A DNA stretch of 39,418 nt from Candidatus Cloacimonadia bacterium (GCA_049975325.1 JBNGDW010000003.1:1-39418), one strand, 5' to 3'; counted from the first letter of the stretch, positions 7,688-39,418 are shown. Notes: generated by a model not told the origin, from the sequence alone. Translations and numbers: made by a program.

Positions 7688-7762
7688 GGCCCCATCGTCT
7701 AGTGGTTAGGACGCCAGACTCTCATTCTGGTAACAGGGGTTCGACTCCCCTTGGGGCTACCA
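7688..7762 (+). tRNA. tRNA-Glu (CTC)
   Basis: GGCCCCA/TGGGGCT acceptor stem, anticodon arm CCAGA-CTCTCAT-TCTGG, TTCGACT T-loop, encoded CCA. Confidence 0.96.
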
Positions 7763-13620: not shown

Positions 13621-13670
13621 AAAAAGCACAAAGGATGAGATTATTCATTATATAATAAACCTTTGTGCTT
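13621..13670 (-). terminator. probable intrinsic terminator closing the four-gene membrane operon
   Basis: AAGCACAAAGG (13624-13634) pairs with CCTTTGTGCTT (13660-13670), with an inner TTATT/AATAA pair. The minus-strand transcript ends in a short U tract. Confidence 0.65.
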
Positions 13671-13699
13671 GGTATATTTAATAAAGTACTTTGGGTATT

Positions 13700-14296
13700 C
13701 TAAATTAAATGCAGCCAATCTTGGAGGAGGAACTGGATACGGCCAATTAAAAGTGAGACACGAGCCATAACTGTGTATCCAAAGGAGGCACCAAATCCGA
13801 TCATCATAAACCAAATTCCAATAGATGTTATTCTGCCATAGACACCGGTATGTGCTTTGGAAAAGAAGAAGTAAAGAAGTATGGTAACAGTACCAATAAA
13901 TATCAAAATAGTATTTATATCGGTGAGAGGCATCATTGCACCTCGCATTTGCACGAGTATCCACGAATGCAGAGTCATTGGTACGCTCATTCCTGTAATA
14001 GCCATTCCAAAAGCTATAGGATATCTACTCAACCAGCTATATTTAGGCCAAAATCGGAAACAGTAAAGTATGCCAATGATAAAGGGAATAATAAGGATAT
14101 ACTCGTGACGAAGAAAAAGTGGATTATATGCATACGGAATAAAGACATTGTAGAAGGTAAGAGGAATAGAATAACCTACTGATATACCAATAAAGAGATG
14201 TTCGGCAAACCTGTAGATAGGATTTTCTTTATAAAGGAATGAAAATATACTTAAGGTTAAAAAAGCAGCAATCCATGTTCCAATAATTTCGCTCAT
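13700..14296 (-). CDS. conserved-type multi-pass membrane protein (module gene 4)
   Basis: About 6 hydrophobic helices; FSFLYKENPIYRFAEHLFIG and FGASFGYTVMAR segments; AAGGAG Shine-Dalgarno sequence. Confidence 0.8.
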   Translation of the reverse strand: MSEIIGTWIAAFLTLSIFSFLYKENPIYRFAEHLFIGISVGYSIPLTFYNVFIPYAYNPLFLRHEYILIIPFIIGILYCFRFWPKYSWLSRYPIAFGMAITGMSVPMTLHSWILVQMRGAMMPLTDINTILIFIGTVTILLYFFFSKAHTGVYGRITSIGIWFMMIGFGASFGYTVMARVSLLIGRIQFLLQDWLHLI

Positions 14297-14306
14297 TTTC
14301 GTCTCC

Positions 14307-15251
14307 TTACTTTACTACTTTTCTTTTTTCTTCACGGCGACTCAGAAAATATCCTATATTTCCAAGGATGATAAAGACAATGATTAAAAGATGTACTATA
14401 GCCTGGGCATCCATGCCAATACGAGCCACTTTGTATTTATAGAGAGTCTCAGCGAAGTCGTATTGTTGGGTTCTCCATTTAAGGTCACGAGCACGCTTTA
14501 CACTAAAGCTAAGGTCATTCATTGCGAAAGCATCAACCAATTCCTCATATTCAGCAGCACCCTTAAGTCCACCAAGCATGCCTATAATCTGCCCAGTTTG
14601 TAGGTAAGGATAAACCTCCGCGGCTGATACAGCAGTAACACCAGTTGCAACATCAAGGCCAAATCTTGGCCGTGCATAGGTAAACCATTTATATCCATAT
14701 GAAGAACCTGTGGTCTCAATTACTACTTGAATATTATCATAATTTTTTATTTTTTCCATTATTGACAGATTTTCAAGACTAAGCCCTGCCGCATTCGTTT
14801 CAATAGTTTTGGTTATATCCTCTCCCATACCTAAAATTATTGGGATAGTCAATGCTGCGGGTTTATATCCAAAATTACAATAATCTACATCAGGTTGTAT
14901 GTCAGGAAAATCCTCTTTTACCTCTGAGATAGCCATCTCAGCAATTGGTGCTCCTGTTGGAAAGAAGGAAAGTGTGAACACCTTAATCTTTCGTGCAAAA
15001 CAATGCCGTAATATTGCGATCTCCATTGGATATAACTCAGGCATTGTTGCTGGATCATGATAAAAATCTAAAATGATAGCCATATCATCCCTGCCAGCAA
15101 CTGCATCAATATGTTGATAGAGGTCTTCTACAGGGGTGGTCGTATATGTGGGCAATCCTAATGGAAAAACAAGAGGCAATATTACGCAAAGGGCAACTAT
15201 AATATAGATATAGCGTCTATCTACTTTTTGAATAAATTCAGAGAATTTCAT
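14307..15251 (-). CDS. membrane protein with large soluble alpha/beta domain (module gene 3)
   Basis: Transmembrane segments at both termini flank a soluble domain containing YPYLQTGQIIGMLGGLKGAAEYE; AGGAG Shine-Dalgarno sequence. Confidence 0.8.
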   Translation of the reverse strand: MKFSEFIQKVDRRYIYIIVALCVILPLVFPLGLPTYTTTPVEDLYQHIDAVAGRDDMAIILDFYHDPATMPELYPMEIAILRHCFARKIKVFTLSFFPTGAPIAEMAISEVKEDFPDIQPDVDYCNFGYKPAALTIPIILGMGEDITKTIETNAAGLSLENLSIMEKIKNYDNIQVVIETTGSSYGYKWFTYARPRFGLDVATGVTAVSAAEVYPYLQTGQIIGMLGGLKGAAEYEELVDAFAMNDLSFSVKRARDLKWRTQQYDFAETLYKYKVARIGMDAQAIVHLLIIVFIILGNIGYFLSRREEKRKVVK

Positions 15252-15281
15252 ATAATGCTCCTCTTCTATAATTGGAAATAT

Positions 15282-15905
15282 TTACTCACGACCGCCGAGA
15301 TAAGATCGTTCAATACCTAAAATAATTTTTAATGATGTTGCTACAATACCCAAACCTACACCGATATTTATTCCCCGTTTTGCAGCCAGGTTTGGCACAT
15401 TCAAAATCCATTCAGTGATATCAGGTATCCAATGTGTAATGGCAGCACCTATAGAGACTCTTCCGAGCATAACAATTACACCGGCAATAAGCAGAACCGT
15501 GGCTTCTAGTGAGCGGGCACGGAATGCCTTATATGCTGCAGAGGCAATATAAAAAGCTAAGAGAGAAAACATTGTGGACGCTAAGGGAACTTGCAAGTTT
15601 TCAAAAACCCACATAAAAGGAGTTCCAGCCTCAATGCCCCAGATAAAACCTATAGCAGCTGTTACAACTATACTAACCAAAGTTACTATGCTATAGCCCC
15701 AGTTTGGCGCCTTATGAGTCACTTTACTCCAATGGACTAACCATAAACTACCCACAGCCAAAACAAGAGCAAAGGAAGATACAACTTTCATCCAGTCCAT
15801 ATACCAACTATAGAAATCATCTGCAATTTTGTGCGGTATAAATACATAACCAACGAATATAAAGCCTAATACGATAACTATTAATAAGGGTATTTGCTTT
15901 TTCAT
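15282..15905 (-). CDS. multi-pass membrane protein (module gene 2)
   Basis: About 6 transmembrane helices; TMFSLLAFYIASAAYKAFRARSLEA segment; C-terminal KIILGIERSYLG; GAGGAG Shine-Dalgarno sequence. Confidence 0.8.
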   Translation of the reverse strand: MKKQIPLLIVIVLGFIFVGYVFIPHKIADDFYSWYMDWMKVVSSFALVLAVGSLWLVHWSKVTHKAPNWGYSIVTLVSIVVTAAIGFIWGIEAGTPFMWVFENLQVPLASTMFSLLAFYIASAAYKAFRARSLEATVLLIAGVIVMLGRVSIGAAITHWIPDITEWILNVPNLAAKRGINIGVGLGIVATSLKIILGIERSYLGGRE

Positions 15906-15926
15906 CTGTTTTCTCCTCAGTATTTA

Positions 15927-18698
15927 TTATTGAGCTGGGAACCAATTCATAAAAAAGGTTAAGTGGAGGGTAGAGAGCAGCGTCCCAAGCACTATTCCTA
16001 TTATAATTAAAAGTTTCATATAGTCCTGTGCCTTTAAAGTTCCCAAAATGAGAGGTTCGCGCGATAGATAGGCACTTGCTGCATAAAGTTCCTCCCCAAT
16101 TAAGGTATAATCACATGTAGTAATAAAGAATGGCAATTGAGTAATGGCGTCAGTACCAGCAATCTGGATGGCACCTGTTGTGCTTCCAGTCTCAGTCATT
16201 AAAAGGGATTCGGCCCAGAACATACCAAGGTAAAAGTTTGTAGCGGTCTTTTCTCGAATCATTATTCCATTTACACCAGCCACAAAAGCAAACTGCTGGT
16301 CACTAACAAAGAATACGCTATTTTTATCATAAGTATCAGGTCTTCCTGCCTCATAATGGGCTTCGCGCACAATTTCTTGAGCAATTGGGAGAACAATATA
16401 ATCACGCACAGGCACCAGAATACGGGTATCGTATTCTGCTGCTTTTTTTGCTACTCCACTCAATATTGCAAGACCTGCGAGTGTGGCAACATCTTGAATA
16501 GTACTTAGTCCTGGTACAAAAAGTATCGGTCTCCCCATCTCGGTGGCTCTACCTATTGCTGTATCAATTTCCTGAATCCCTGCTATTGGGCGAATATACA
16601 AATTTCTTCCCTGACGAGCAGCTTTGATCATTACGTAGACGAGTATTGCAAAAATTGCAAAGGAGATTAGGACAATAATTTTTGTCTTATCAAACCAATC
16701 CGGAGTCGGATAAAAGTATGGGTTGTCTTCAAGCTTAGTATCTACAAAGTGCCCCTTGCCATCAGTCTTCCGAAGATAGTAAGTGAAGGTTCTTTTGGCT
16801 TTATTATGTGCTTCTTCGAGAATTTTCATTCTCGCGCGGTCACTTTTTTGTTGATTTGCCTCTCGTACCCAGGGTGGCACATCTTCATTATTTATAAAAC
16901 CTACATATTGAGCAATCTGTTCTTGAATCTGCTCACGCTCCTCAAGCGAAGAAACGGTTTCTAATTCCTGTTGCAACCTTTCGACTTCTTTGCGAAGCTC
17001 TTCGTGAAGCTTGTGTAATTGCTCGAGATAGAGGGTCTCTACATAATATGGTTGATATTCCTTCCAATTTCCTACATCAAGATAGGTAGGTACATAAAGC
17101 AGATTATCCTCAAGTGAGTATTGTACAATTCCACGATAAACTACTTCCTCATAAGGAACTTTGTCTAAATATTGCCTTTCCATAAATGAGAATGGCTGTG
17201 CAAAGCGATATAGGGGGTCATTCTTACTACGCTTATACACCTGATAAGTATATTTGCTCTCAGGATATTTTTCTACCCTCACAAGCTCCATTTCATCATC
17301 GTAGTAGAATGTATGCGAAATAACATAATCTTCAGGAAGCTGCACACCTTTGTCTTTGCACACGAATTGAGCAGTAATTGTCTGCGGCTCTAAATAGTCC
17401 CAATCAACATCAAATTCGACCAAATTATCAAGCACATATTCTGCATGGGTCGTTCCATTTATTTCAAGATTGATCTGCGTGACCTCAAAGAGCTCATTAT
17501 CCTTTATAAGATAATTTACAGTCAATTTTGTAAGATCATTATTATATGATATTTTAGAGATCCCCAAATAAGGCTTCTCATAATAAATTCGTATCTGATC
17601 GCCTTTATCATTTGGGTTATCTTCAACAGTAAAATATTCCGCTGGGGTTGGGATCAGATCTGAACTTGCCACTTCTGCTGGTATTGGTTCATCCAAAGCA
17701 ATCGTTTCCTGGTCTCCTCTGTCCTGCTCCCCTATATTAAACCTGTACCAGGAGAGGTTAGCAGGATTAAAGGCTGGAAAGTTTGCCGCAATCGAATCAA
17801 AAGGCACTATCGCATTCGTTTGCGGTGTGTATGGATAGGCATCTGGACGTGTAAAAATAAGATGTTGATTACCATGTTCATCATAAAGATAGATATTAAA
17901 CTGTTTTTGATCGTCAGGGAATAATGGTAATGTCCATTCAAAATGCATCTTCTCGGCATCAAGGTACGCCACAGCATAGAACTCATCCAACTTTTCGGGA
18001 GGATCATCTGTCGTTTTTCCTACAACTATCTCAGAGAGTGGGGATACTTCTCTATTTATATTGACTGCTTGTACAGCGTAGTAATAGGGCGTTCCAACTT
18101 TAAGTTTGCTGAGTATGTATGTAAACTGCCTAAGTTTTAATCCAGCAAGGTAATATGAGGTGGTATCCACTTCCCCATCTTTTTCGACTATCTCAGTAAA
18201 CTCGCTCTTCTTTGTTTTATACATATATTCTTTATTGGGAATAACAGACAACATTCTGTAATGCTGCATTAGCGGGCCATATACCTTCATATCACGGGGG
18301 ATTTCTCTATACAGTACTTCATATCCCTTATCACCCTTTTTCTGGCCTTTTTCGTGTTTCAGTTTAGCTGGGGAAGTTGCGGAAACGAAAAAATTATATC
18401 CTTGGTCAAGATAACGAATAGTATCGCCGACAAATCCAGTTTCTTTATTGATTGGTATCTTCCCAATATAGAAGAGTGTATCCGGTGTTACACCCCGATA
18501 GACTCTATATTCAATTATTTTCTTCTCTTTTGGTAAAGGATTCCAAATAATCTCTAATCCTCCACCATCATCATAGGGAATATCGCGAGCTTGTAAACCG
18601 GTTACGGGTTCATCATTAGGAAGCATCTGAGCATTTGCTAGCCCGAAACAACCCCAAAGCAAAATTACTATTATACCACTCAGAATACTTTTTTGCAT
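15927..18698 (-). CDS. secreted FN3-like repeat protein with coiled coil, transmembrane helix and C-terminal DUF6754-like domain (module gene 1)
   Basis: Signal peptide ending LANA-Q. Repeated DxPxDxG and YRVYR/YYYAVQA FN3-type motifs, heptad-rich LHEELRKEVERLQQEL, a transmembrane helix, then IRPIAG...AIGRATEMGRP...LIGEELYAASAYL recognised as DUF6754-like. Confidence 0.8.
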   Translation of the reverse strand: MQKSILSGIIVILLWGCFGLANAQMLPNDEPVTGLQARDIPYDDGGGLEIIWNPLPKEKKIIEYRVYRGVTPDTLFYIGKIPINKETGFVGDTIRYLDQGYNFFVSATSPAKLKHEKGQKKGDKGYEVLYREIPRDMKVYGPLMQHYRMLSVIPNKEYMYKTKKSEFTEIVEKDGEVDTTSYYLAGLKLRQFTYILSKLKVGTPYYYAVQAVNINREVSPLSEIVVGKTTDDPPEKLDEFYAVAYLDAEKMHFEWTLPLFPDDQKQFNIYLYDEHGNQHLIFTRPDAYPYTPQTNAIVPFDSIAANFPAFNPANLSWYRFNIGEQDRGDQETIALDEPIPAEVASSDLIPTPAEYFTVEDNPNDKGDQIRIYYEKPYLGISKISYNNDLTKLTVNYLIKDNELFEVTQINLEINGTTHAEYVLDNLVEFDVDWDYLEPQTITAQFVCKDKGVQLPEDYVISHTFYYDDEMELVRVEKYPESKYTYQVYKRSKNDPLYRFAQPFSFMERQYLDKVPYEEVVYRGIVQYSLEDNLLYVPTYLDVGNWKEYQPYYVETLYLEQLHKLHEELRKEVERLQQELETVSSLEEREQIQEQIAQYVGFINNEDVPPWVREANQQKSDRARMKILEEAHNKAKRTFTYYLRKTDGKGHFVDTKLEDNPYFYPTPDWFDKTKIIVLISFAIFAILVYVMIKAARQGRNLYIRPIAGIQEIDTAIGRATEMGRPILFVPGLSTIQDVATLAGLAILSGVAKKAAEYDTRILVPVRDYIVLPIAQEIVREAHYEAGRPDTYDKNSVFFVSDQQFAFVAGVNGIMIREKTATNFYLGMFWAESLLMTETGSTTGAIQIAGTDAITQLPFFITTCDYTLIGEELYAASAYLSREPLILGTLKAQDYMKLLIIIGIVLGTLLSTLHLTFFMNWFPAQ

Positions 18699-18723: not shown

Positions 18724-19239
18724 TTAAATAGACTTTCCGTATGCAAATAAACCGCCTGCTTTATAAATATCCATTTGAACCTTTGAGAAGGGCATCAGTG
18801 AGATAAACGGAGAGGAAGTTTTACCAGTCTCTAAGTTAATCTCAAGCTCTTGCCTTTGCTGAAGTTTGTCTAATTGTATATCTAAGATTTCCAGAATTGG
18901 TAGCCCTGAATTTATTGCATTGCGCTTATAAATTGCACCAAAGGAAAGTGCAAGAATGGCTTGTATACCAAGAGAGATAAAACAGTCTACGGCTTGCTGG
19001 CGGGATGAGCCTGCACCAAAATTTTTGCCAGCAATCACAATATCACCTTTTTCAGCTTTCTGGACAAAATCCTTCCACCCCTCAAGATTATCAAAAGTAT
19101 ATTCTCCCATCTGATTAATATCAGTAATAGTAAGGTACCTATTATGGAAGATCATATCTGTATTGATATCATCTATCAGCTTGCCGCTGGCATCGGTTAG
19201 CAACCAAATTTTGCCTTTTATCAATACATCTTTTAGCAT
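18724..19239 (-). CDS. LeuD/HacB/DmdB-type dehydratase small subunit (copy 2)
   Basis: DINTDMIF, GKNFGAGSSRQQA and SFGAIYKRNAIN motifs. ATG at 19239 is preferred over the TTG at 19275. Confidence 0.85.
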   Translation of the reverse strand: MLKDVLIKGKIWLLTDASGKLIDDINTDMIFHNRYLTITDINQMGEYTFDNLEGWKDFVQKAEKGDIVIAGKNFGAGSSRQQAVDCFISLGIQAILALSFGAIYKRNAINSGLPILEILDIQLDKLQQRQELEINLETGKTSSPFISLMPFSKVQMDIYKAGGLFAYGKSI

Positions 19240-19303
19240 GACACGATAAATTTGGTTTTGGCTGTCACTTGTCAATTTTTTTTATTAAAAAAATACATAT
19301 AGA

Positions 19304-26000: not shown

Positions 26001-28877
26001 TTACCTCATGAGTATCATCTTCTTCACGGCTGAGAATTCATCAGTTTCCAACTTATAGAAGTAGATGCCATTCCCTATATTCCCAGGCTCCCAGTAGGCA
26101 ACTCCATCTTCACCTTCAATTGTGTCAACATGCTGTCCAAGGACATTATATATTTTGATTTCAACTTTCTGTAGAGGATTGTCCTTAATCTGATACCTGA
26201 TTTTGGTTGAATTCTTGAACGGATTTGGATAGTTCTGCCCAAGGAAACTGACCTCAAACTCATCTTCAGGGTCTATACCCACAGTTCCTAAACCGACTGT
26301 ATTAACATACCTGCCACCTGAAGAGACGACCCATGTTTCCGTGGCCTCATCCCAGAAGAAAGCATGGCCATAGTAAGCCTCCAGTCCTATATATTGCCTA
26401 ACCATATCATCAAAAAGTGGCTTAATAGGAGTATTTGGATCATCCACCGTTTGAATAACAAAGAAGTCTTCTGTCAAAGTCTGAGAGGTGGTAAGAGTAA
26501 ATTCTGCCCAATCATCAGTGAATGCTCCAGCAGCTGCATATGGGAACGTTTGAGAATAAATTAGATCACCAGGCAAACCATCTACTTCATCATATATATC
26601 AAAAGTTATGTTAACACTCGCACTAGGATCATCAGAATTATTAAAGAGATAGGTTTTGACTTTTTCAATTGTATATTCTGTCAGCACTTCATCGCTGAAT
26701 GGAGTAAAGTAAGTGCCGCAATTCCAGGAAGTTATGTAATTACCCGACCATTCACGAGAATTATATCCTAACTCAAACTGGCCTGCTGGAAGAATTTCGA
26801 TCTCAATTGATGTAGTATCATTTGTCAGATCAGCGTCTCCTGTCGCTTCTACCCAAGCAATAAAGTCATATGTTCCTGCTACAAGTGTGGTTGTTGGTGC
26901 TTGAGTCATCCAGCCAAGCGCATATTCTCCTGTTGCAACTTCCGGAGGGGAATTATTAAAGAAATCAAATGGGGTTGTACCAATACCATCAATGTCTATA
27001 CGCAATTTAGGAGATATTGTAGAAAGACCACCGTTTCCATAAACCAGACCAGGAGATAAAGTCATGCCTTCAGTGGTAGGATAAGGAATGACAGGGAATG
27101 CGCCGATTGCATCAACATCTGGTAGATTTGACCCTACGATAGTCACATCATCAACCCAGAAGCCTTCTCCGTCTCCACCATCATGATTATTATCTAATCT
27201 TACCACAATGGCAAGCACTATTTCTTTGCCTTGATATGCAGAAATATCATACCTTGGGCTGACTGTCCACTCATCAGTTACACCATAGTCATACCCCAAA
27301 TTTTCCATTGGTACTATTGGCTCATCTGGTATTAGGTTCTCCTCATCGAAATCTGAGAATATAGGAGTTCCATCGGCTGTGATCTCCACATTATCAACCC
27401 AGAAACCTTCAAATGTTGCTGCCGGGTCTGAAGCCAAGGCAAAACGTATCTGAACTGTTTCACCAACATAGGCTGATAGATCAAATTCTGCATCAAACCA
27501 TCCTTCGCTTGAGCCACCCCATCCAGGGTAAGATAATGTATCTGCAGAATTATGCGTATTCCAGGCTCCAGCATATGCGATAGTTACATTGTATGGATGA
27601 GCAGTGTCTTCAAGGAATTCATAGGTCTCCCAGTTATCAGTTGAGATTTGTACATTTGCAACATCCCAGCCATCGTAGGGAGGGTCTTCTCCACCTGGCG
27701 TTTCTGTCTCATACTGAAGTTTGCAAGTAAGATACCCTTCCGAAGCTGTTGCAAGGTCAATATCAGGTGAATATAAGTAATAGATTGCATTTTCTCCATA
27801 CAGATGCGTTTCTTCAGAGCCAGCATACCAGGAAGTCCCTCCTTCATATGCTTCATACTCAGAAGAGTGCCATGCTATTGCATCCTCTGTTTTACCAATA
27901 TATGCATACCAATAATCCTCAAGATAGCCATCTCCATCACCGTCTATATCAACGAGATCGCTATTAAACCAATATTCGAGTTCCAATCTTCCATATCCAT
28001 CCGGACACATAAAAGGAGGTGATATTAGCAAGTTCATTCCATCTGGGATAGGCATCATAAAGTCATCAATCCACCAGGAATGTATGGGGCTGTGAAAGGA
28101 GTCGGTTACTGTGGCCCAGGTATCAGCGTGGCTGGGCACCCAGGGAGCTTGATCTACCTCAATAATAGCATCAATACACCACTCATAGTCAGTACCCCAA
28201 TCCTCAACAACATATGTCCAAGTTCCACTTCCAGGAAGTATTTCTACAGAGCGATTTGCACCTGTAGTGCCATCATCTGAGATAATAGAAAGAGTATCTC
28301 CTGCAGGTACCGAATAGGTAATAAAGAAATCATCGGTTGTGTTTACTGTATAATCCAGGGAAGACAAATCTACATAATTCCAAGTGCCTATATTTGCTGT
28401 CACAACAACACTTCCTATCTCTGTGCCAGGAAGACCTTCTGCATCCATATCGTATACATGGACAATGGCTTCAGCTCCATCCGAGCCAGAATACCAATAA
28501 AAAAACGCTCCTGCTAATGTGCCGGCACGACGAGCAGTAAAGCGCACACCATATTCATCAGCTTCATCAGGAATGACCCAATAATAGGTAGGAGTACCAT
28601 AATACCAGATATCATCTACATCTTCAAAGTTATCTTGCCAGAGTAGATATTCTTGCTGATCCGGTTCAGGGGGTTGTTTAGAGGGAGCAGGTTCTTTCGG
28701 CACTCTAATCACTTTCTCATTTGCTGTTTCTAAGAGCGGATGCCTCTCTTTCTGCAGGACTGGCTGTATTTTTTCATACTTGCCGAGCTGTGGTTGCTCT
28801 TTTGCCATCTCTGCAAAGACCAACGAGCTCAGCATTAGTATGCTAACGATTGTAATCGCGGTTACTTTTGTTTTCAT
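26001..28877 (-). CDS. large acidic secreted beta-sandwich (MAM/cleaved-adhesin/InhA-like) protein with T9SS type-A-like C-terminal sorting domain
   Basis: Signal peptide; DLSAYVGETVQIRF...GFWVDNV and DISAYQGKEI...GFWVDDV repeats; C-terminal QNYPNPF...IYNVLGQ...GIYFYKL...KKMILMR; GGAGG Shine-Dalgarno sequence. Confidence 0.85.
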   Translation of the reverse strand: MKTKVTAITIVSILMLSSLVFAEMAKEQPQLGKYEKIQPVLQKERHPLLETANEKVIRVPKEPAPSKQPPEPDQQEYLLWQDNFEDVDDIWYYGTPTYYWVIPDEADEYGVRFTARRAGTLAGAFFYWYSGSDGAEAIVHVYDMDAEGLPGTEIGSVVVTANIGTWNYVDLSSLDYTVNTTDDFFITYSVPAGDTLSIISDDGTTGANRSVEILPGSGTWTYVVEDWGTDYEWCIDAIIEVDQAPWVPSHADTWATVTDSFHSPIHSWWIDDFMMPIPDGMNLLISPPFMCPDGYGRLELEYWFNSDLVDIDGDGDGYLEDYWYAYIGKTEDAIAWHSSEYEAYEGGTSWYAGSEETHLYGENAIYYLYSPDIDLATASEGYLTCKLQYETETPGGEDPPYDGWDVANVQISTDNWETYEFLEDTAHPYNVTIAYAGAWNTHNSADTLSYPGWGGSSEGWFDAEFDLSAYVGETVQIRFALASDPAATFEGFWVDNVEITADGTPIFSDFDEENLIPDEPIVPMENLGYDYGVTDEWTVSPRYDISAYQGKEIVLAIVVRLDNNHDGGDGEGFWVDDVTIVGSNLPDVDAIGAFPVIPYPTTEGMTLSPGLVYGNGGLSTISPKLRIDIDGIGTTPFDFFNNSPPEVATGEYALGWMTQAPTTTLVAGTYDFIAWVEATGDADLTNDTTSIEIEILPAGQFELGYNSREWSGNYITSWNCGTYFTPFSDEVLTEYTIEKVKTYLFNNSDDPSASVNITFDIYDEVDGLPGDLIYSQTFPYAAAGAFTDDWAEFTLTTSQTLTEDFFVIQTVDDPNTPIKPLFDDMVRQYIGLEAYYGHAFFWDEATETWVVSSGGRYVNTVGLGTVGIDPEDEFEVSFLGQNYPNPFKNSTKIRYQIKDNPLQKVEIKIYNVLGQHVDTIEGEDGVAYWEPGNIGNGIYFYKLETDEFSAVKKMILMR

Positions 28878-29151: not shown

Positions 29152-32100
29152 TTATCTCGCAATAATAAGCTTATAGATTTTATCATTGGGTTTAGAATTG
29201 AGATATACTTTGTAAAAATAAACTCCATTAGCCAAACGGTCGCCGTCCGCATCTCTCGCGTCCCAATAAACTTGGTTAAATCCCTTTTCTCCATTGGAAG
29301 TTATTTTTTTTATGCTTCTACCTGAAATGGTAAATATTTCAATAGTAACTGGAGCATCTTCAGTTAATGTAAAAGTGAACCGGGTTTCATCTTTCACTGG
29401 ATTGGGGTAGTTTAGGACATTACTTGCCTGAAGTGAACCTTCTTCTTTTACCTTAAACTCAATTTGGACTTCATTATCTTCATTAAAATTATCAAAAGCC
29501 TCTAATCTGAGTCTATGTGGGCCTGGAGAAAGAGATGGAAAATCGTATTCTATGGTTCCCTTTGTATAAGAGTCTAAGTCGTAAACAAAATTTTCCGTAA
29601 TATTTTCCTCATACGAATCGTCAACAGAAACCAGTATTCTATGACCTGGCCTATTCATTATATTTATTCCATTGCTATCCACCAATTCAGCATAGAGTGT
29701 TGGCGAACTGGAGACATAATCTCCATTTTGAAAGGTGGGACTATCAAGCCATACATTGATATTGGGGGGACCGTCCTGTTCAGCAGAGCTATAGCCGTTG
29801 ATGATTAATCTATGGTCATCTGCATCTTCCCTTTTGTTATAAGGTATAAGAATATCCTTACTTTTTTCATTATTAACTGCATATCCTACAATATGGCCTG
29901 CGTCTCCACCATAGATATCATCAGGGACAACAAATCTCAAAGAAGCGGTATCCTGCTCACAGGAGACGGGCCCACGAAAGATCATTTCCCCTTTTTTAAT
30001 ATAATTAAATGTCCATCCTCTATCAACAAATACGGTTTCGTAATCTGTATCATATACTGTAAAAAAGAGTTTGTCATATTGATTGATAGAGTCTAATATA
30101 GTTCCTTCGAGATATGCGGTTTGCCTTCCCATAAGTGAATCTGGGAGTTCTTGGGGTATAGTTACTTTCCCTCCGACTTCTGGGATAGCGAGCCTCAACG
30201 CAGGGTCTCCAAAAAACATATAATAAGGATAGCCTCCGTTTTTTGCTACTAATATAGCTTCACCTAAGCAAATATCATCATCAGCAGAATTAACCAAATT
30301 TTTTACTATCTCATTACAGGGACCAAAACTACCACGTATATTTGAGGCATATGAAGCAATAGAGCCGCCAGCCGGAGTTAAAAGTATCTTTTCCGCCATT
30401 GAATCGAAATTATTAAACTGAAAAGCCCCTACTTCACAAGCACCGGCAATGAAAAATGTTAGCCTATTCTTATTCTGAAATTTATCAAGGTCTCTACTGA
30501 TAACAATATACTTCTCATGTCCCAATTGATCGGGATTTCCATGTCCCCGGTAGTAAAAGAGAGTAGTCCCATTATTTACGAATTCAAGTATATCTTCAGT
30601 TGCTCCCGGCTTATTTTGAAATTCATCAAAAGGATATTCTATACCATAAATCTTCTTTATTGTCACAACCTCTCTAAGGCGATTTGCACAATCGGTTTCC
30701 ATGCCTAAAATTGCAGCCGAATCAACATAATCACTAGAATGTTCTGGATTATTAGTATCATCAGCCACAAGTAGTACATTGGCTCGCCAGGGACCATATT
30801 CAGAGGACATAATATAATCTTCTATCTTATTTATCACGATATCTACATGAGAACTGGTCTGACAGGGCAATCTTCCTATCATCATCTCTGGTCGGCTTAT
30901 ACTAAAATACACAAAATAATCATCGCTTACTGAACAGGACGAGCTTGTTACAAACGGGGGGATTTTATTTCTCTCACCAGTAACGGATTCGTAATGTTTA
31001 AAATCAGTTGAGCCATCTCCTATAAGTAGCGTATAAGCCACACTTTCTCCATAATTCTCAAAGGCATATTTTAAGAAATGGCGAATGCCAACAACATCTG
31101 GCACCCCCCAGGAAAACTCATCATAAACATCGGACAATCTCGCGACCAGCACAGATAGACTATCTGCTGCATAATGCAGGTCTGCAAGCGCCTGTGACTG
31201 CTTATACCATTCATCAGGAGTTATAATCACCATATCTGTTTGTGGGAAGTTTTCACTATTTCGCAAATAAGGCGAACCGGAGCCAACCTGCCCCCCAGAG
31301 GAAACAAAATACCAATCAATATAGTCTGTCTGAATCTCTTGAGGAGTGCGGTATCCTCCTGCACATACAACATAATATTTCACAGACAAGTCTTCCACTG
31401 AATCTGTAAACTCTAAGGTGTTATCAGATATAAAATTAGAATCGTCAACTGGAATTACAACGGTAGAATCAAAATCGTATATCTTAAAAATCCTTAGCTC
31501 ATCTTTTTTCACATTTTCTATGCGGAAAGTTTGCTCACCAAGAGAAGATGGTGAAAAAAGAAGCTGATTATTGCGCAAGAACAGTTTCCTATAGTATTTG
31601 GCTTCAAAGTAATCAAGTATCAATTCGGAACTAGATATTGCAGGATATAATTGAATTCTAATTTGGTTGGTTCCGTTCTGAAAATTGACTGAAGCGGGCA
31701 GGTTAACAGTAATTCCGGAAGTGGGATAGGCTCTTCCTATATATTGCCCATTTAGATAGAACCTTAGCGAATCAAGATCAGTATTTGTAGCACAGTAAAA
31801 ATACATCTTTTGATCTCCACTTGCTACTACATCATATACCGGAAACTCAAGAGTATAAGAGCCAGTTATGTTTCCTGAGAGTTCTTTCCAGTACCAACGA
31901 AATGGCTTGCCTGCTGGATCCAGGCGGAACTTCTCTTCTTCAAAATGGTCCTCAAAATAAAACTGGCTTATCACATTCTTCCTCTGTGCAGTGAATGGTT
32001 TATATTGAGATTGAGGTGGCTTTAAACTGACTTTCTCATAATTATATGTTAACCAATAGATATTAGTATAGGCGTAGGGGTGATAATAATTATTGGAATA

Positions 32101-33051
32101 GCCAGAATGCATTAAATCCCCATTTGGGTCTCTTGCATAAAAATATATCGCATCACCTGATTCTGAAATATCATAAGGTACCTCTTTGAGAGGCGGAAGT
32201 TCTGCACCAACATTTCGAGAAAGCGCTCCCCCACCGCCATTAAATATTTTTATCCTATCCATAGTCAGGTCTTGTACAGGTATACCTGCCTTAGCTAATT
32301 GGCTTTTTGTAATCTTGTAGATTCCATCCTGATCAATAGGTATTTTAAACCACTCATCTGCATATGAAAAAGGATCATACGTGTCCTTAATACTCTCATC
32401 TTTAGGTAGTTGCCAACTCCTTGCAATCTCAAAGTTTACAATAGTATTTCTAAAGATATGCTTGAAATTATTATCAGTAAAAAGAGTTTTTGCCTCTGTA
32501 TTGCCTTTATAATTTATGCTTATACTTAGCCCGGAAGTGATTTTTAGATAACCATCCGCCAGCTGGCGGAAAGGATTAATAGTCATTCTCACAACCCGTT
32601 GCCATCTATAATTATAGGGCTCTGAGACTTCAATCAGAGATGGCGAGAGAGTAGGAGCATACTTCATTTGTTGGATCTCGTATACAGGGAAAGCAATATC
32701 GTCTTTCCCTATTTCAAACCGAGGAGAAGGGGCTATAGGATATTGTAGATAAACCTTCTTGTCAGTTTGATTGCTTATAGAAAATGAGATATCTCCGTCT
32801 GGTGGTACACCAACAAGAAAAGAGTATTCAGGAAGTAAAGCTGCCCCTTCTTCTTTCTCATTATAAAATCCAGGTGCATCGATGAAAGTAAAACCCTGTT
32901 TTTCTGAAATATGATACTCTTGTAGTTCAAATGAGATGACTAATTGTTTCTTATTAGACTGGATAATTTTGAGGGGGCTGTTTTGTGCTAATAATGCGGT
33001 ACTATGCAAAAGTAACAGAAGTGCACAGTAAATTACTAATTTTTTCTTCAA
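29152..33051 (-). CDS. porU: C25-family (gingipain-like) cysteine peptidase, PorU sortase-like
   Basis: Signal peptide, C25 propeptide-like region, VYDEFSWGVPD, LLIGDGS, IGRLP, catalytic GHG and GACE, and a C-terminal NYPNP...WDARDADGDRLANGVYFY domain. The overall layout is PorU-like. TTG start. Confidence 0.82.
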   Translation of the reverse strand: MKKKLVIYCALLLLLHSTALLAQNSPLKIIQSNKKQLVISFELQEYHISEKQGFTFIDAPGFYNEKEEGAALLPEYSFLVGVPPDGDISFSISNQTDKKVYLQYPIAPSPRFEIGKDDIAFPVYEIQQMKYAPTLSPSLIEVSEPYNYRWQRVVRMTINPFRQLADGYLKITSGLSISINYKGNTEAKTLFTDNNFKHIFRNTIVNFEIARSWQLPKDESIKDTYDPFSYADEWFKIPIDQDGIYKITKSQLAKAGIPVQDLTMDRIKIFNGGGGALSRNVGAELPPLKEVPYDISESGDAIYFYARDPNGDLMHSGYSNNYYHPYAYTNIYWLTYNYEKVSLKPPQSQYKPFTAQRKNVISQFYFEDHFEEEKFRLDPAGKPFRWYWKELSGNITGSYTLEFPVYDVVASGDQKMYFYCATNTDLDSLRFYLNGQYIGRAYPTSGITVNLPASVNFQNGTNQIRIQLYPAISSSELILDYFEAKYYRKLFLRNNQLLFSPSSLGEQTFRIENVKKDELRIFKIYDFDSTVVIPVDDSNFISDNTLEFTDSVEDLSVKYYVVCAGGYRTPQEIQTDYIDWYFVSSGGQVGSGSPYLRNSENFPQTDMVIITPDEWYKQSQALADLHYAADSLSVLVARLSDVYDEFSWGVPDVVGIRHFLKYAFENYGESVAYTLLIGDGSTDFKHYESVTGERNKIPPFVTSSSCSVSDDYFVYFSISRPEMMIGRLPCQTSSHVDIVINKIEDYIMSSEYGPWRANVLLVADDTNNPEHSSDYVDSAAILGMETDCANRLREVVTIKKIYGIEYPFDEFQNKPGATEDILEFVNNGTTLFYYRGHGNPDQLGHEKYIVISRDLDKFQNKNRLTFFIAGACEVGAFQFNNFDSMAEKILLTPAGGSIASYASNIRGSFGPCNEIVKNLVNSADDDICLGEAILVAKNGGYPYYMFFGDPALRLAIPEVGGKVTIPQELPDSLMGRQTAYLEGTILDSINQYDKLFFTVYDTDYETVFVDRGWTFNYIKKGEMIFRGPVSCEQDTASLRFVVPDDIYGGDAGHIVGYAVNNEKSKDILIPYNKREDADDHRLIINGYSSAEQDGPPNINVWLDSPTFQNGDYVSSSPTLYAELVDSNGINIMNRPGHRILVSVDDSYEENITENFVYDLDSYTKGTIEYDFPSLSPGPHRLRLEAFDNFNEDNEVQIEFKVKEEGSLQASNVLNYPNPVKDETRFTFTLTEDAPVTIEIFTISGRSIKKITSNGEKGFNQVYWDARDADGDRLANGVYFYKVYLNSKPNDKIYKLIIAR
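32555..32570. repeat. REP-like palindrome copy 5 (perfect TCCGCCAGCTGGCGGA), inside porU
   Basis: Perfect 16-bp palindrome; reads FRQLADG on the minus strand. Confidence 0.75.
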
Positions 33052-36149: not shown

Positions 36150-36234
36150 GGAGGATTAGACCTAACGGTAAGGCAGCGGTCTTGAAAACCGCCGGGCTTT
36201 GCCCTTGGGGGTTCGAATCCCTCATCCTCCGCCA
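36150..36234 (+). tRNA. tRNA-Ser (TGA)
   Basis: GGAGGAT/ATCCTCC acceptor stem, GCGGT-CTTGAAA-ACCGC anticodon arm, long variable arm, GCCA end. Confidence 0.94.
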
Positions 36235-36261
36235 TTTTTGAATGGATGATAGGTTTAAAAG

Positions 36262-36352
36262 GGAGAGGTGACCGAGCTGGCTTAAGGTGCGCGCCTGCTA
36301 AGCGTGTTCCCGGTAAAACGGGACCAGGGTTCGAATCCCTGCCTCTCCGCCA
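36262..36352 (+). tRNA. tRNA-Ser (GCT)
   Basis: GGAGAGG/CCTCTCC acceptor stem, CGCGC-CTGCTAA-GCGTG anticodon arm, long variable arm, GCCA end. Confidence 0.96.
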
Positions 36353-36362
36353 GTTTTAATTT

Positions 36363-36436
36363 TGGGGTGTCGTCTAATGGCAGGACACCAGACTCTGGAT
36401 CTGTTGGTCGGGGTTCGAATCCCTGCACCCCAGCCA
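36363..36436 (+). tRNA. tRNA-Gln (CTG)
   Basis: TGGGGTG/CACCCCA acceptor stem, anticodon loop CTCTGGA, TTCGAAT T-loop, GCCA end. Confidence 0.95.
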
Positions 36437-36441
36437 TTTTC

Positions 36442-36516
36442 TGGGTCGTCGCCAAGTGGAAAGGCACAGGGTTTTGGTCCCTGCATACGGAGGTTCGAAT
36501 CCTCCCGGCCCAGCCA
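36442..36516 (+). tRNA. tRNA-Gln (TTG)
   Basis: TGGGTCG/CGGCCCA acceptor stem, CAGGG-TTTTGGT-CCCTG anticodon arm, GCCA end. Confidence 0.96.
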
Positions 36517-39008: not shown

Positions 39009-39418
39009 ATGCGCCGCATTCTAATAACAGATATAGGCAGCACCACAACGAAAGCTGTACTATTTAAAAAAAGGGAGGATACATATATCCTACAAGGGCT
39101 TCACAAGGTAGGCACAACTGTTGAAAAGCCGGTAGAAGATGTAAAAATTGGTATTTACAAGGCAATTTGTTCTCTGGAAGATGAGATTTTAGAACTTATT
39201 CTAAAACAGGATGCCTCCCCTCAGAAACTTAGCTTTCAAGATGATGTGCAATATCTTACGACAAGTAGTGCTGGGGGCGGCTTGCAAATCCTTGTATTAG
39301 GGCTGACACTCTTTGATTCTGCAAGTAGCGCAAAACGAGCAGCCTATGGCTCCGGTGGAGTTATTCTGGACACCTTTGCCATAAACGATAACCGTTCCTC
39401 AGTAGAAAAAATGCGGCT
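39009..39418 (+). CDS. glmL: glutamate mutase L (GlmL/MutL)-family ASKHA ATPase (partial, runs off right edge)
   Basis: Not in the ORF track; translated by hand as MRRILITDIGSTTTKA...TTVEKPVEDV...TSSAGGGLQILVLGL...SAKRAAYGSGGVI. Confidence 0.88.
   Translation, partial: MRRILITDIGSTTTKAVLFKKREDTYILQGLHKVGTTVEKPVEDVKIGIYKAICSLEDEILELILKQDASPQKLSFQDDVQYLTTSSAGGGLQILVLGLTLFDSASSAKRAAYGSGGVILDTFAINDNRSSVEKMR

Follow-up and report, generated by a model that had tools for sequence, protein, structure and literature searches.

A conserved four-gene membrane module encoding a DUF6754 protein in Cloacimonadota and its association with a GlmL/MutL-family ATPase

A module of four genes, encoding a DUF6754 protein and three membrane partners, was analysed in a window of DNA from a Candidatus Cloacimonadia bacterium (GCA_049975325.1, JBNGDW010000003.1:1-39418), the window being the whole stretch of 39,418 nucleotides. 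All four open reading frames (ORFs) are on the minus strand. In reading order they are g1 (15927-18698, 923 amino acids), g2 (15282-15905, 207 amino acids), g3 (14307-15251, 314 amino acids), and g4 (13700-14296, 198 amino acids), for subunits A, B, C, and D respectively, with A present here in a long form. They are separated by 21, 30, and 10 bp, and every ATG is preceded by a Shine-Dalgarno sequence (AAGGAAGGAG, GAGGAG, AGAGGAG or AAGGAG). This agrees with a preliminary description of the same DNA, which had reported four co-oriented genes with gaps of 10 to 30 bp and strong Shine-Dalgarno sequences. The hairpin and U tract with which that description closed the module were placed by a fold calculation at exactly 13621-13670 on the minus strand. 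The hairpin has an 11-bp stem, a long loop of 25 nt, and a U run, with a folding free energy of -15.4 kcal/mol and a z-score of -2.75, and 2 of 200 shuffled sequences folded equally well. It is not listed by a consensus terminator scan of the window, probably because of the 25-nt loop. This candidate intrinsic terminator likely ends the operon. Downstream of the module are ApbE and FolE2 genes. At the other end, g1 starts 25 bp past a LeuD-like ORF, which is itself preceded by an M23 peptidase gene, and the 5' limit of the transcript is therefore not fixed.

Transcript data are consistent with expression of part of the module. Contigs of the rRNA-depleted metatranscriptome X19 align to sections of g3 and g1 and across the g1-g2 junction (15431-16088), with 59 of the 60 contigs at least 95% alike to the window; DNA carry-over is possible in this run and its contigs cannot prove a single transcript. 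The lack of X19 contigs over g4, the LeuD-like ORF, and ApbE is not informative. Weak support is thus given to the expression of genes g1 to g3 in a close relative of the source. Two other runs were set aside as evidence of transcription, X14 having the same contig ends as the DNA run X13, and X2 having a DNA twin run.

Subunit A has an N-terminal hydrophobic segment at residues 5-23 that resembles a signal peptide and two transmembrane segments, at residues 673-691 and 896-914. Residues 665-920 match PF20539 (DUF6754) over model positions 2-257 of 257, with an E-value of 6.3e-119 and 396.3 bits against a cut-off of 27; in a PF20539 search of the genome the domain lies at 15939-16706 on the minus strand. 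The C-terminus of g1 is therefore a full member of Pfam DUF6754. It is the most conserved part of the protein, being 47-56% identical (median 55%) to copies in other phyla, and contains the invariant motifs GRATExGxP, AGRPD, and CDYTLIGEE.

Between the N-terminal segment and the first transmembrane helix is an ectodomain of approximately 640 amino acids. Against the Pfam fn3 model (PF00041) it scores 12.4 bits (E 0.18), below the cut-off of 25. The nearest ESM-Atlas feature clusters carry fn3 at a score of 0.90 with a low shared count, and the structural rows from the Atlas have TM-scores below 0.5 and a source model of pLDDT 0.62. The FN3-like nature of the ectodomain is only a lead. Of the build proposed for g1 in the preliminary description, the N-terminal segment, the transmembrane helix, and the DUF6754 domain were recovered, and the FN3 assignment fell below threshold. 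The DxPxDxG repeats described there occur twice in the strict form (residues 39 and 360), with a looser third copy at residue 231. The proposed coiled coil corresponds to a charged stretch, at about residues 555-600, that appears helical by composition. The ectodomain of subunit A is variable, with protein forms of approximately 370 and 950 amino acids. The common form has one FN3-like domain and a total length of about 370-450 amino acids, to which g1 adds its ectodomain of some 640 residues.

An AlphaFold2 model of g1 residues 652-923 (pLDDT 84.8) has a three-layer alpha/beta domain between the two transmembrane helices. With this model, the best Foldseek E-value against the PDB was 1.1e-3, and the VIA search returned Z-scores of 10.2 at the top and 8.8 at rank 50. 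The structural neighbours include sirtuins (Z 10.2), LpxB (Z 10.1), MurG (Z 9.4), and transhydrogenase dIII (Z 9.6). When g1 was compared with the PDB sequences by phmmer, no match had an E-value below 0.3.

The other three proteins do not match any family in Pfam or NCBIfam, and NCBIfam gave none for all four. Walker A, CxxC, and CxxCH motifs are absent from the four proteins, which agrees with the earlier remark that there were no Walker, Fe-S cysteine or heme motifs. Subunits B and D, described before as polytopic proteins of about 200 residues, are indeed of this type, with several hydrophobic segments each. In subunit B there are about six distinct segments, the FRA loop is invariant, and a GIERxYLG motif lies at the C-terminus. 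At the threshold used, D has at least three, and there is an invariant FSFLYKxNP near its N-terminus. The two are not detectably related to one another, the hhalign probability for g2 against g4 being 0.4%. Among 30 relatives of g2, 17 match 7TMR-DISM_7TM (PF07695, gathering score 29 bits) at an E-value of 1 or lower, with a best of 6.3e-08; the g2 of the window is not one of them. A weak match to TMD0_ABC (E 0.0025-0.5) is found in 10 of the 30, and the other weak Pfam matches are to unrelated transmembrane families, such as TauE, MASE6, and NSP6.

Subunit C has transmembrane segments at residues 15-33 and 285-303 flanking a soluble domain, as was originally proposed. Its layout is a conserved N-tail (DRR, in which D11 and R12 are invariant), a transmembrane segment, the soluble domain, a GGLKGAAEYE motif, a second transmembrane segment bearing Q, H, and N, and a basic C-tail. 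The AlphaFold2 model (pLDDT 90.2) again has a three-layer alpha/beta domain between two transmembrane helices. Searches with this model gave a best Foldseek E-value against the PDB of 4.8e-4 at a TM-score of 0.33 and VIA Z-scores of 8.5 or lower. The models of g3 and DUF6754 share many generic structural neighbours, and their hits are a mixture of sirtuins, GT-B halves, RCK/KTN domains, transhydrogenase dIII, and SDRs. As the structural lists are flat and mix Rossmann families, no specific family can be named for either domain, and both are best described from the models as putative generic Rossmann-like folds. The LGGLKGAAEYE segment of g3 had been likened to the C-terminus of g1, a parallel that profile comparison did not support: hhalign of g3 against DUF6754 gave a probability of 2.0% over 19 aligned columns, all in the last transmembrane helix. 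Given the shared structural neighbours, a very distant relationship is still conceivable.

By the positive-inside rule, the DUF6754 domain is predicted to be cytoplasmic and the g3 domain periplasmic, which would place the soluble domains on opposite faces of the membrane, as suggested in the preliminary description. The g3 relative P0168 has CARDB repeats inserted at one loop of the soluble domain. CARDB domains are usually extracellular, and this insertion fits a location of the g3 domain outside the cell. In another member of the g3 family, P0259, HEAT repeats are inserted in a loop of the soluble domain, and in P0241 the whole domain is duplicated internally. A profile of g3 found 2552 cluster representatives at an E-value of 1e-3 or lower among 1.84 billion, mostly of about 280 amino acids; none of the cluster names for 10 g3 relatives was informative. 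Prediction of a four-chain complex (g1 residues 652-923, g2, g4, and g3 as the scored partner) gave scores of 0.63, 0.61, and 0.68. The controls scored 0.00 and 0.00 when the partner was replaced and 0.67 when chain 1 was replaced, and the prediction is used here neither for nor against binding.

The four genes are found together well beyond this genome. Within the Cloacimonadota, 80 loci were taken from 477 confirmed g2 relatives, and the counts are of those loci with enough flanking sequence. A g1 relative is upstream of g2 in 72 of 73 loci, g3 is next in 74 of 74, and g4 is next in 62 of 62. The sole miss, L014, has no g1 relative upstream of g2, and there is a gap of approximately 260 bp ahead of its g3. 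In 24 of 49 loci g4 is followed by another g1 paralogue; in L028, L034, and L041, for example, this is a second long A that does not have its own B, C, and D. The source genome has a second A-B-C-D set on contig C41, consisting of a short A (372 amino acids, one FN3-like domain) and, after it, the B, C, and D relatives; its proteins share 32% to 56% identity with those of the window. Of 151 Cloacimonadota genomes sampled, 144 have DUF6754, most often as 2-3 copies; in Planctomycetota the figure is 40 of 151 genomes, and none of 14 control genomes has it. All four of the loci found in Planctomycetota have the order A-B-C-D, and each of the three with room for it contains a tandem duplication of the entire module. 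In the Planctomycetota locus L084, which was read in detail, successive genes overlap or abut.

A wider survey used a DNA pattern for the invariant DUF6754 motif in a genome collection. It returned at least 120 stretches, of which 80 were analysed, and is biased to copies with the exact motif. Where there is room, B comes after A in 67 of 71 of these wide loci, C is the next gene in 58 of 59, and D the next in 43 of 44. About 20 named lineages are represented: WOR-3, Nitrospirota, Muiribacteriota, Poribacteria, Neomarinimicrobiota, Elusimicrobia, Planctomycetota, Bdellovibrionales, Vicinamibacterales, Eisenbacteria, Zixiibacteriota, Lentisphaeria, Latescibacterota, Stahlbacteria, Aegiribacteria, Binatia, Ignavibacteria, Vulcanimicrobiota, GN15, Coatesbacteria, and Methylomirabilis. 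Four A genes from this survey are without B (L118, L143, L150, and L174), and a lone A gene outside the Cloacimonadota is also present in L108. The A-B-C-D cassette is defined here by synteny and is not a curated family; the window has A and then the B, C, and D relatives on the same strand and in the same order. These synteny counts put the arrangement far beyond chance. The order is kept across phyla, so that the co-occurrence which the preliminary description had proposed as a check is present, and there is very little doubt that the four genes are a conserved four-protein unit. That the four proteins form a physical complex can be inferred.

The module had been described as self-contained. 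It was found instead to co-occur with, and often directly to follow, genes for a GlmL/MutL-family ATPase and a partner protein. In L084, the two genes directly upstream of A encode a 607 amino acid PF13941 (MutL) protein (E 1e-121, 407 bits) and then a 374 amino acid protein without a family, and the order ATPase-partner-A-B-C-D is seen in all three Planctomycetota loci with room upstream. In the wide loci, the ATPase or the partner is present in 25 of 80, among them loci from Nitrospira, Lentisphaeria, Eisenbacteria, Neomarinimicrobiota, Methylomirabilis, Vicinamibacterales, and Bdellovibrionales; of the 41 loci with room ahead of A, 12 have one of the two immediately upstream of it. Within the Cloacimonadota, L017 has the ATPase-partner directly upstream of g1 and is the sole such case among the 80 loci searched.

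In the source genome, the ATPase and the partner are fused in a gene that starts in the window at 39009 on the plus strand (39009-39418, PF13941) and runs past its end. PF13941 is matched at C3:39018-40468 with 244 bits, and the partner domain lies at C3:41207-41920 with an E-value of 3.6e-28, within one open frame of 844 amino acids. The fusion is about 970 amino acids in all, its frame being broken in the stored contig by a run of 10 N just beyond the window end. It is the sole PF13941 gene detected in the genome and lies approximately 20 kb from the module, on the same contig and the opposite strand. In several relatives of the same taxonomic order, a PF13941 gene is likewise 15-26 kb from the long-form module on one contig. 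The fusion retains DIGSTTTK and DIGGATTD, which we take to be the phosphate motifs of an ASKHA ATPase; it had no match among the PDB sequences. Most Cloacimonadota have two PF13941 genes, of approximately 625 and 980 amino acids, the latter being fused to the partner; in the source genome (90.6% complete) the fused one was the only one found. Copy numbers per genome are several paralogous modules against one or two ATPase genes, and the fusion probably serves both of the ABCD modules of this genome.

The distributions of the two families match closely. Among 151 Planctomycetota genomes, DUF6754 and PF13941 are both present in 38 and both absent from 110; DUF6754 is found without PF13941 in 2, and 1 has a weak partial match to PF13941 without DUF6754. 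In 21 of the 38, by hand count, the two are on one contig no more than about 6 kb apart. Among 151 Cloacimonadota genomes, 144 have both, none has DUF6754 only, 1 has the ATPase only, and 6 have neither. These six (G002, G005, G008, G017, G023, and G065) belong to one family and are complete single-contig genomes of 1.5-1.6 Mb, forming a natural 'knock-out' lineage. The link between ATPase and module recurs in many lineages despite the relatedness of the genomes, and a functional link between the module and the ATPase-partner pair is likely. The absence of Walker motifs from the four proteins does not, therefore, mean that the system is free of an ATPase, given the co-occurring ASKHA ATPase. 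When 71 flanking ORFs of the wide loci were tallied by Pfam family, no family recurred, the maximum being 3 of 71, and for this reason the six genes have the appearance of a complete system.

The reading that best accounts for these observations is that the four proteins form an ATP-powered inner-membrane complex. B and D would be its polytopic core. Subunit A, in its long form here, would expose a variable FN3-like domain on the outer side and have its near-invariant Rossmann-like DUF6754 domain in the cytoplasm, and C would have a second Rossmann-like domain that is probably periplasmic. The cytoplasmic GlmL/MutL-family ATPase, of the actin fold (ASKHA), may work with the ABCD complex together with its partner, docking on a conserved cytoplasmic face to which DUF6754 and the N-tail of C, itself conserved, both contribute. 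ATP turnover could then cause a conformational change in B and D that moves a substrate across the inner membrane, with the ectodomain of A and the outer domain of C selecting the substrate or passing it on. Transport, and the coupling of the complex to ATP, are both inferred. As a whole, an ATP-powered ABCD complex with an ASKHA ATPase and a variable FN3-like outer domain is the best explanation but falls somewhat short of an even chance, and the identification of the module as a transporter is similarly tentative or slightly more so. A transporter is favoured because of the near-invariant cytoplasmic domain, the variable outer domain, the several modules per one or two ATPase genes, and the apparently complete six-gene set. 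It is possible, although doubtful, that ABCD with the GlmL-like ATPase and a barrel-sandwich-like partner constitutes a primary active transporter of a new class, in which interchangeable FN3-capped modules share one actin-fold motor in place of an ABC, P-type or rotary ATPase.

Several points weigh against this reading. Subunits B and D have no transporter-family match in Pfam, with scattered weak transmembrane hits at most, and FN3-like domains are more typical of surface, adhesion, and enzyme-accessory proteins than of small-solute capture. To our knowledge there is no ASKHA-powered transporter, and the proposed mechanism would therefore be without precedent. In the six sources scanned (the window, L001, and L083-L086), neither a riboswitch nor a metabolic neighbour hints at a substrate, and Rfam searches found tRNAs only. 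The ATPase gene of this genome, at 20 kb and on the other strand, provides no local operon evidence. In the two Planctomycetota genomes with DUF6754 and no detected ATPase, one of the DUF6754 matches is at a contig edge. The genomes counted are related rather than independent, so that the counts overstate the statistical support, and the six Cloacimonadota genomes lacking both families represent a single loss event, since all are of one family. The functions suggested for every member of the module are, moreover, predictions.

An alternative is that the module is a structural, signalling or cell-wall-control complex that spans the envelope and transports nothing, with the long ectodomain of A reaching the wall or the outer membrane. 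The ASKHA protein might dock on a bitopic protein, as in PilM-PilN and FtsA-FtsN, or movement might be passed to the periplasm in the manner of FtsEX-EnvC. The short conserved cytoplasmic N-tail of C, with D11 and R12, could act as a docking peptide, the ectodomain of the long A is large and includes a helical stretch, and the weak Pfam matches of B are to a 7TM receptor-like family. Peptidase genes also adjoin the system in this part of the Cloacimonadota. An M23 peptidase gene is upstream of g1 in 17 of the 47 loci with room, and in this genome a gene encoding three LysM-like repeats together with an M23 domain comes about 300 bp after the ATPase fusion (L088 and L089), as it follows the fusion in 3 of the 8 relatives examined, all three from the same taxonomic order. 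These M23 neighbours are, however, restricted to close relatives, being found in none of 5 more distant Cloacimonadota, in none of 4 Planctomycetota loci, and being absent from the 25 Pfam families most frequent in the 71 neighbours; the adjacency was therefore rejected as a functional link. Envelope machines are usually single-copy, whereas the module is present in 2-3 copies and tandemly duplicated, and the ATPase is of the hydantoinase/GlmL branch rather than the filament or PilM/FtsA branch. An envelope complex is considered unlikely.

Less likely again is a membrane-anchored enzyme, in which the Rossmann-like domains would be catalytic or cofactor-binding, acting on a lipid-linked or envelope substrate. 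This might be by glycosyl or acyl transfer or by nucleotide-dependent chemistry, and the ATPase would be an activator or chaperone by analogy with GlmL and the B12 mutases. DUF6754 is extremely conserved and has many invariant charged residues (R, E, D, C, and Q), as in active sites, its structural neighbours include the GT-B halves LpxB and MurG, sirtuins, and transhydrogenase dIII, and the GlmL relatives are, by their family names, enzyme accessory proteins. The flatness of the structural lists (Z 8.8-10.2 over ranks 1-50 for DUF6754 and 8.5 or lower for g3), in which unrelated Rossmann families are mixed, means that they point to no particular enzyme family. By eye, a Gly-rich nucleotide loop does not appear to be present, and no recurrent enzyme gene was found among the 71 flanking ORFs.

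A self-contained secondary transporter, channel or receptor that does not use the ATPase, the GlmL-like link being indirect through a shared regulon or pathway, for instance, would suit the compactness of the four genes with their own terminator, the unlinked ATPase gene of most Cloacimonadota (adjacent in 1 of 80), and the two Planctomycetota genomes with DUF6754 alone, but is improbable given the near-perfect phyletic match in Planctomycetota, where both families are patchy (38 genomes with both against 3 discordant, n=151), the ATPase or partner beside the module in many lineages (25 of 80 wide loci, 12 of 41 directly upstream of A), the overlapping reading frames of L084, and the large invariant cytoplasmic domain, which would imply a cytoplasmic partner.

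An ATP-driven ABCD complex would share features with several known systems. The Pfam entry for DUF6754 is without a function, covers only the cytoplasmic domain of A, and is silent on B, C, D, and the ATPase pair. The co-occurring ATPase passes the Pfam cut-off for GlmL/MutL (PF13941), with 244 bits in the source genome and 407 bits in L084. It differs from GlmL itself (NCBIfam NF040745, cut-off 475; TIGR01319), against which the L084 ATPase scores 215.9 bits and the source-genome copy, in a query without its first 240 or so amino acids, 67 bits. For the glmL_fam subfamily the L084 ATPase scores 166 against a cut-off of 204. The module ATPase is also longer than GlmL (approximately 600-640 amino acids) or fused to the partner of about 370 amino acids, and it adjoins membrane genes; no mutase genes are beside it in the loci read, glmS and glmE not having been searched for.

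The ECF and ABC importers are similar in logic rather than ancestry, with several paralogous membrane modules, variable outer parts, and few ATPase genes, and the external domains here could likewise capture a substrate. The four proteins have, however, no Walker A motif, no ABC_tran or ABC membrane Pfam hit at an E-value of 0.01 or lower, and no Pfam match to EcfT or an S-component. The candidate motor has an actin (ASKHA) fold, and neither ABC nor ECF systems have a counterpart to the architecture of two polytopic proteins alongside two proteins with a domain between transmembrane helices. Identity as an ABC transporter was rejected, the weak TMD0_ABC trace among the g2 relatives being all that was found.

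In the PilM-PilN-PilO, GspL-GspM, and FtsA-FtsN systems, an ASKHA-fold protein is paired with bitopic proteins, as it is genomically here, where C has a short conserved N-tail. No sequence relation to these systems was found, in contrast, the ATPase is of the GlmL/hydantoinase branch, and there are no pilus or secretion genes in the 25 commonest Pfam families of the 71 neighbours. The RCK/KTN (TrkA-N) proteins similarly have a cytoplasmic Rossmann-like domain on a membrane protein and appear among the structural neighbours of both DUF6754 (Z 9.0-9.8) and g3 (Z 7.0-7.2). These hits are within flat Rossmann lists, however, and there is no Pfam TrkA_N match; a K+ channel and a membrane subunit of the Trk/Ktr type are likewise absent.

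Existing catalogues list the system solely as a domain of unknown function, and as a machine it resembles nothing characterised that could be found. No paper on DUF6754/PF20539 or PF13941 was found in the full-text literature, a search that mostly did not extend to subscription journals, and neither a solved structure of a relative nor a functional name came to light. That three of the four genes match no described family agrees with the suggestion in the preliminary description that this is a candidate undescribed system. New from this window are the long-ectodomain form in the Cloacimonadota, the fused ATPase-partner gene, the prevalence across the phylum, and the co-occurrence test in two phyla. 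If the transporter reading is true, such transporters would be present in approximately 20 mostly uncultured bacterial lineages and be near-universal in the Cloacimonadota. An actin-fold ATPase powering the complex, if true, would be a new energy-coupling principle in membrane biology and would give a role to thousands of genes now annotated as 'hypothetical' in the bacteria of anaerobic digesters, sediments, and oil reservoirs. Named carriers include Nitrospira, Singulisphaera, and relatives of Ignavibacterium. The subunit list, the predicted topology, the invariant motifs, and the pairing with the ATPase make the question directly testable.

Other features of the window are outside the module. 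The LeuD-like (Aconitase_C) ORF between the M23 peptidase gene and g1 (18724-19275, minus strand, 183 amino acids) has a doubtful TTG start and is retained beside g1 solely in the closest relatives. Further upstream on the minus strand are two very large ORFs, of 958 amino acids (26001-28877) and 1299 amino acids (29152-33051). The tRNA genes identified with Rfam are a cluster of four at 36150-36513 and a single gene at 7688-7759 on the plus strand.

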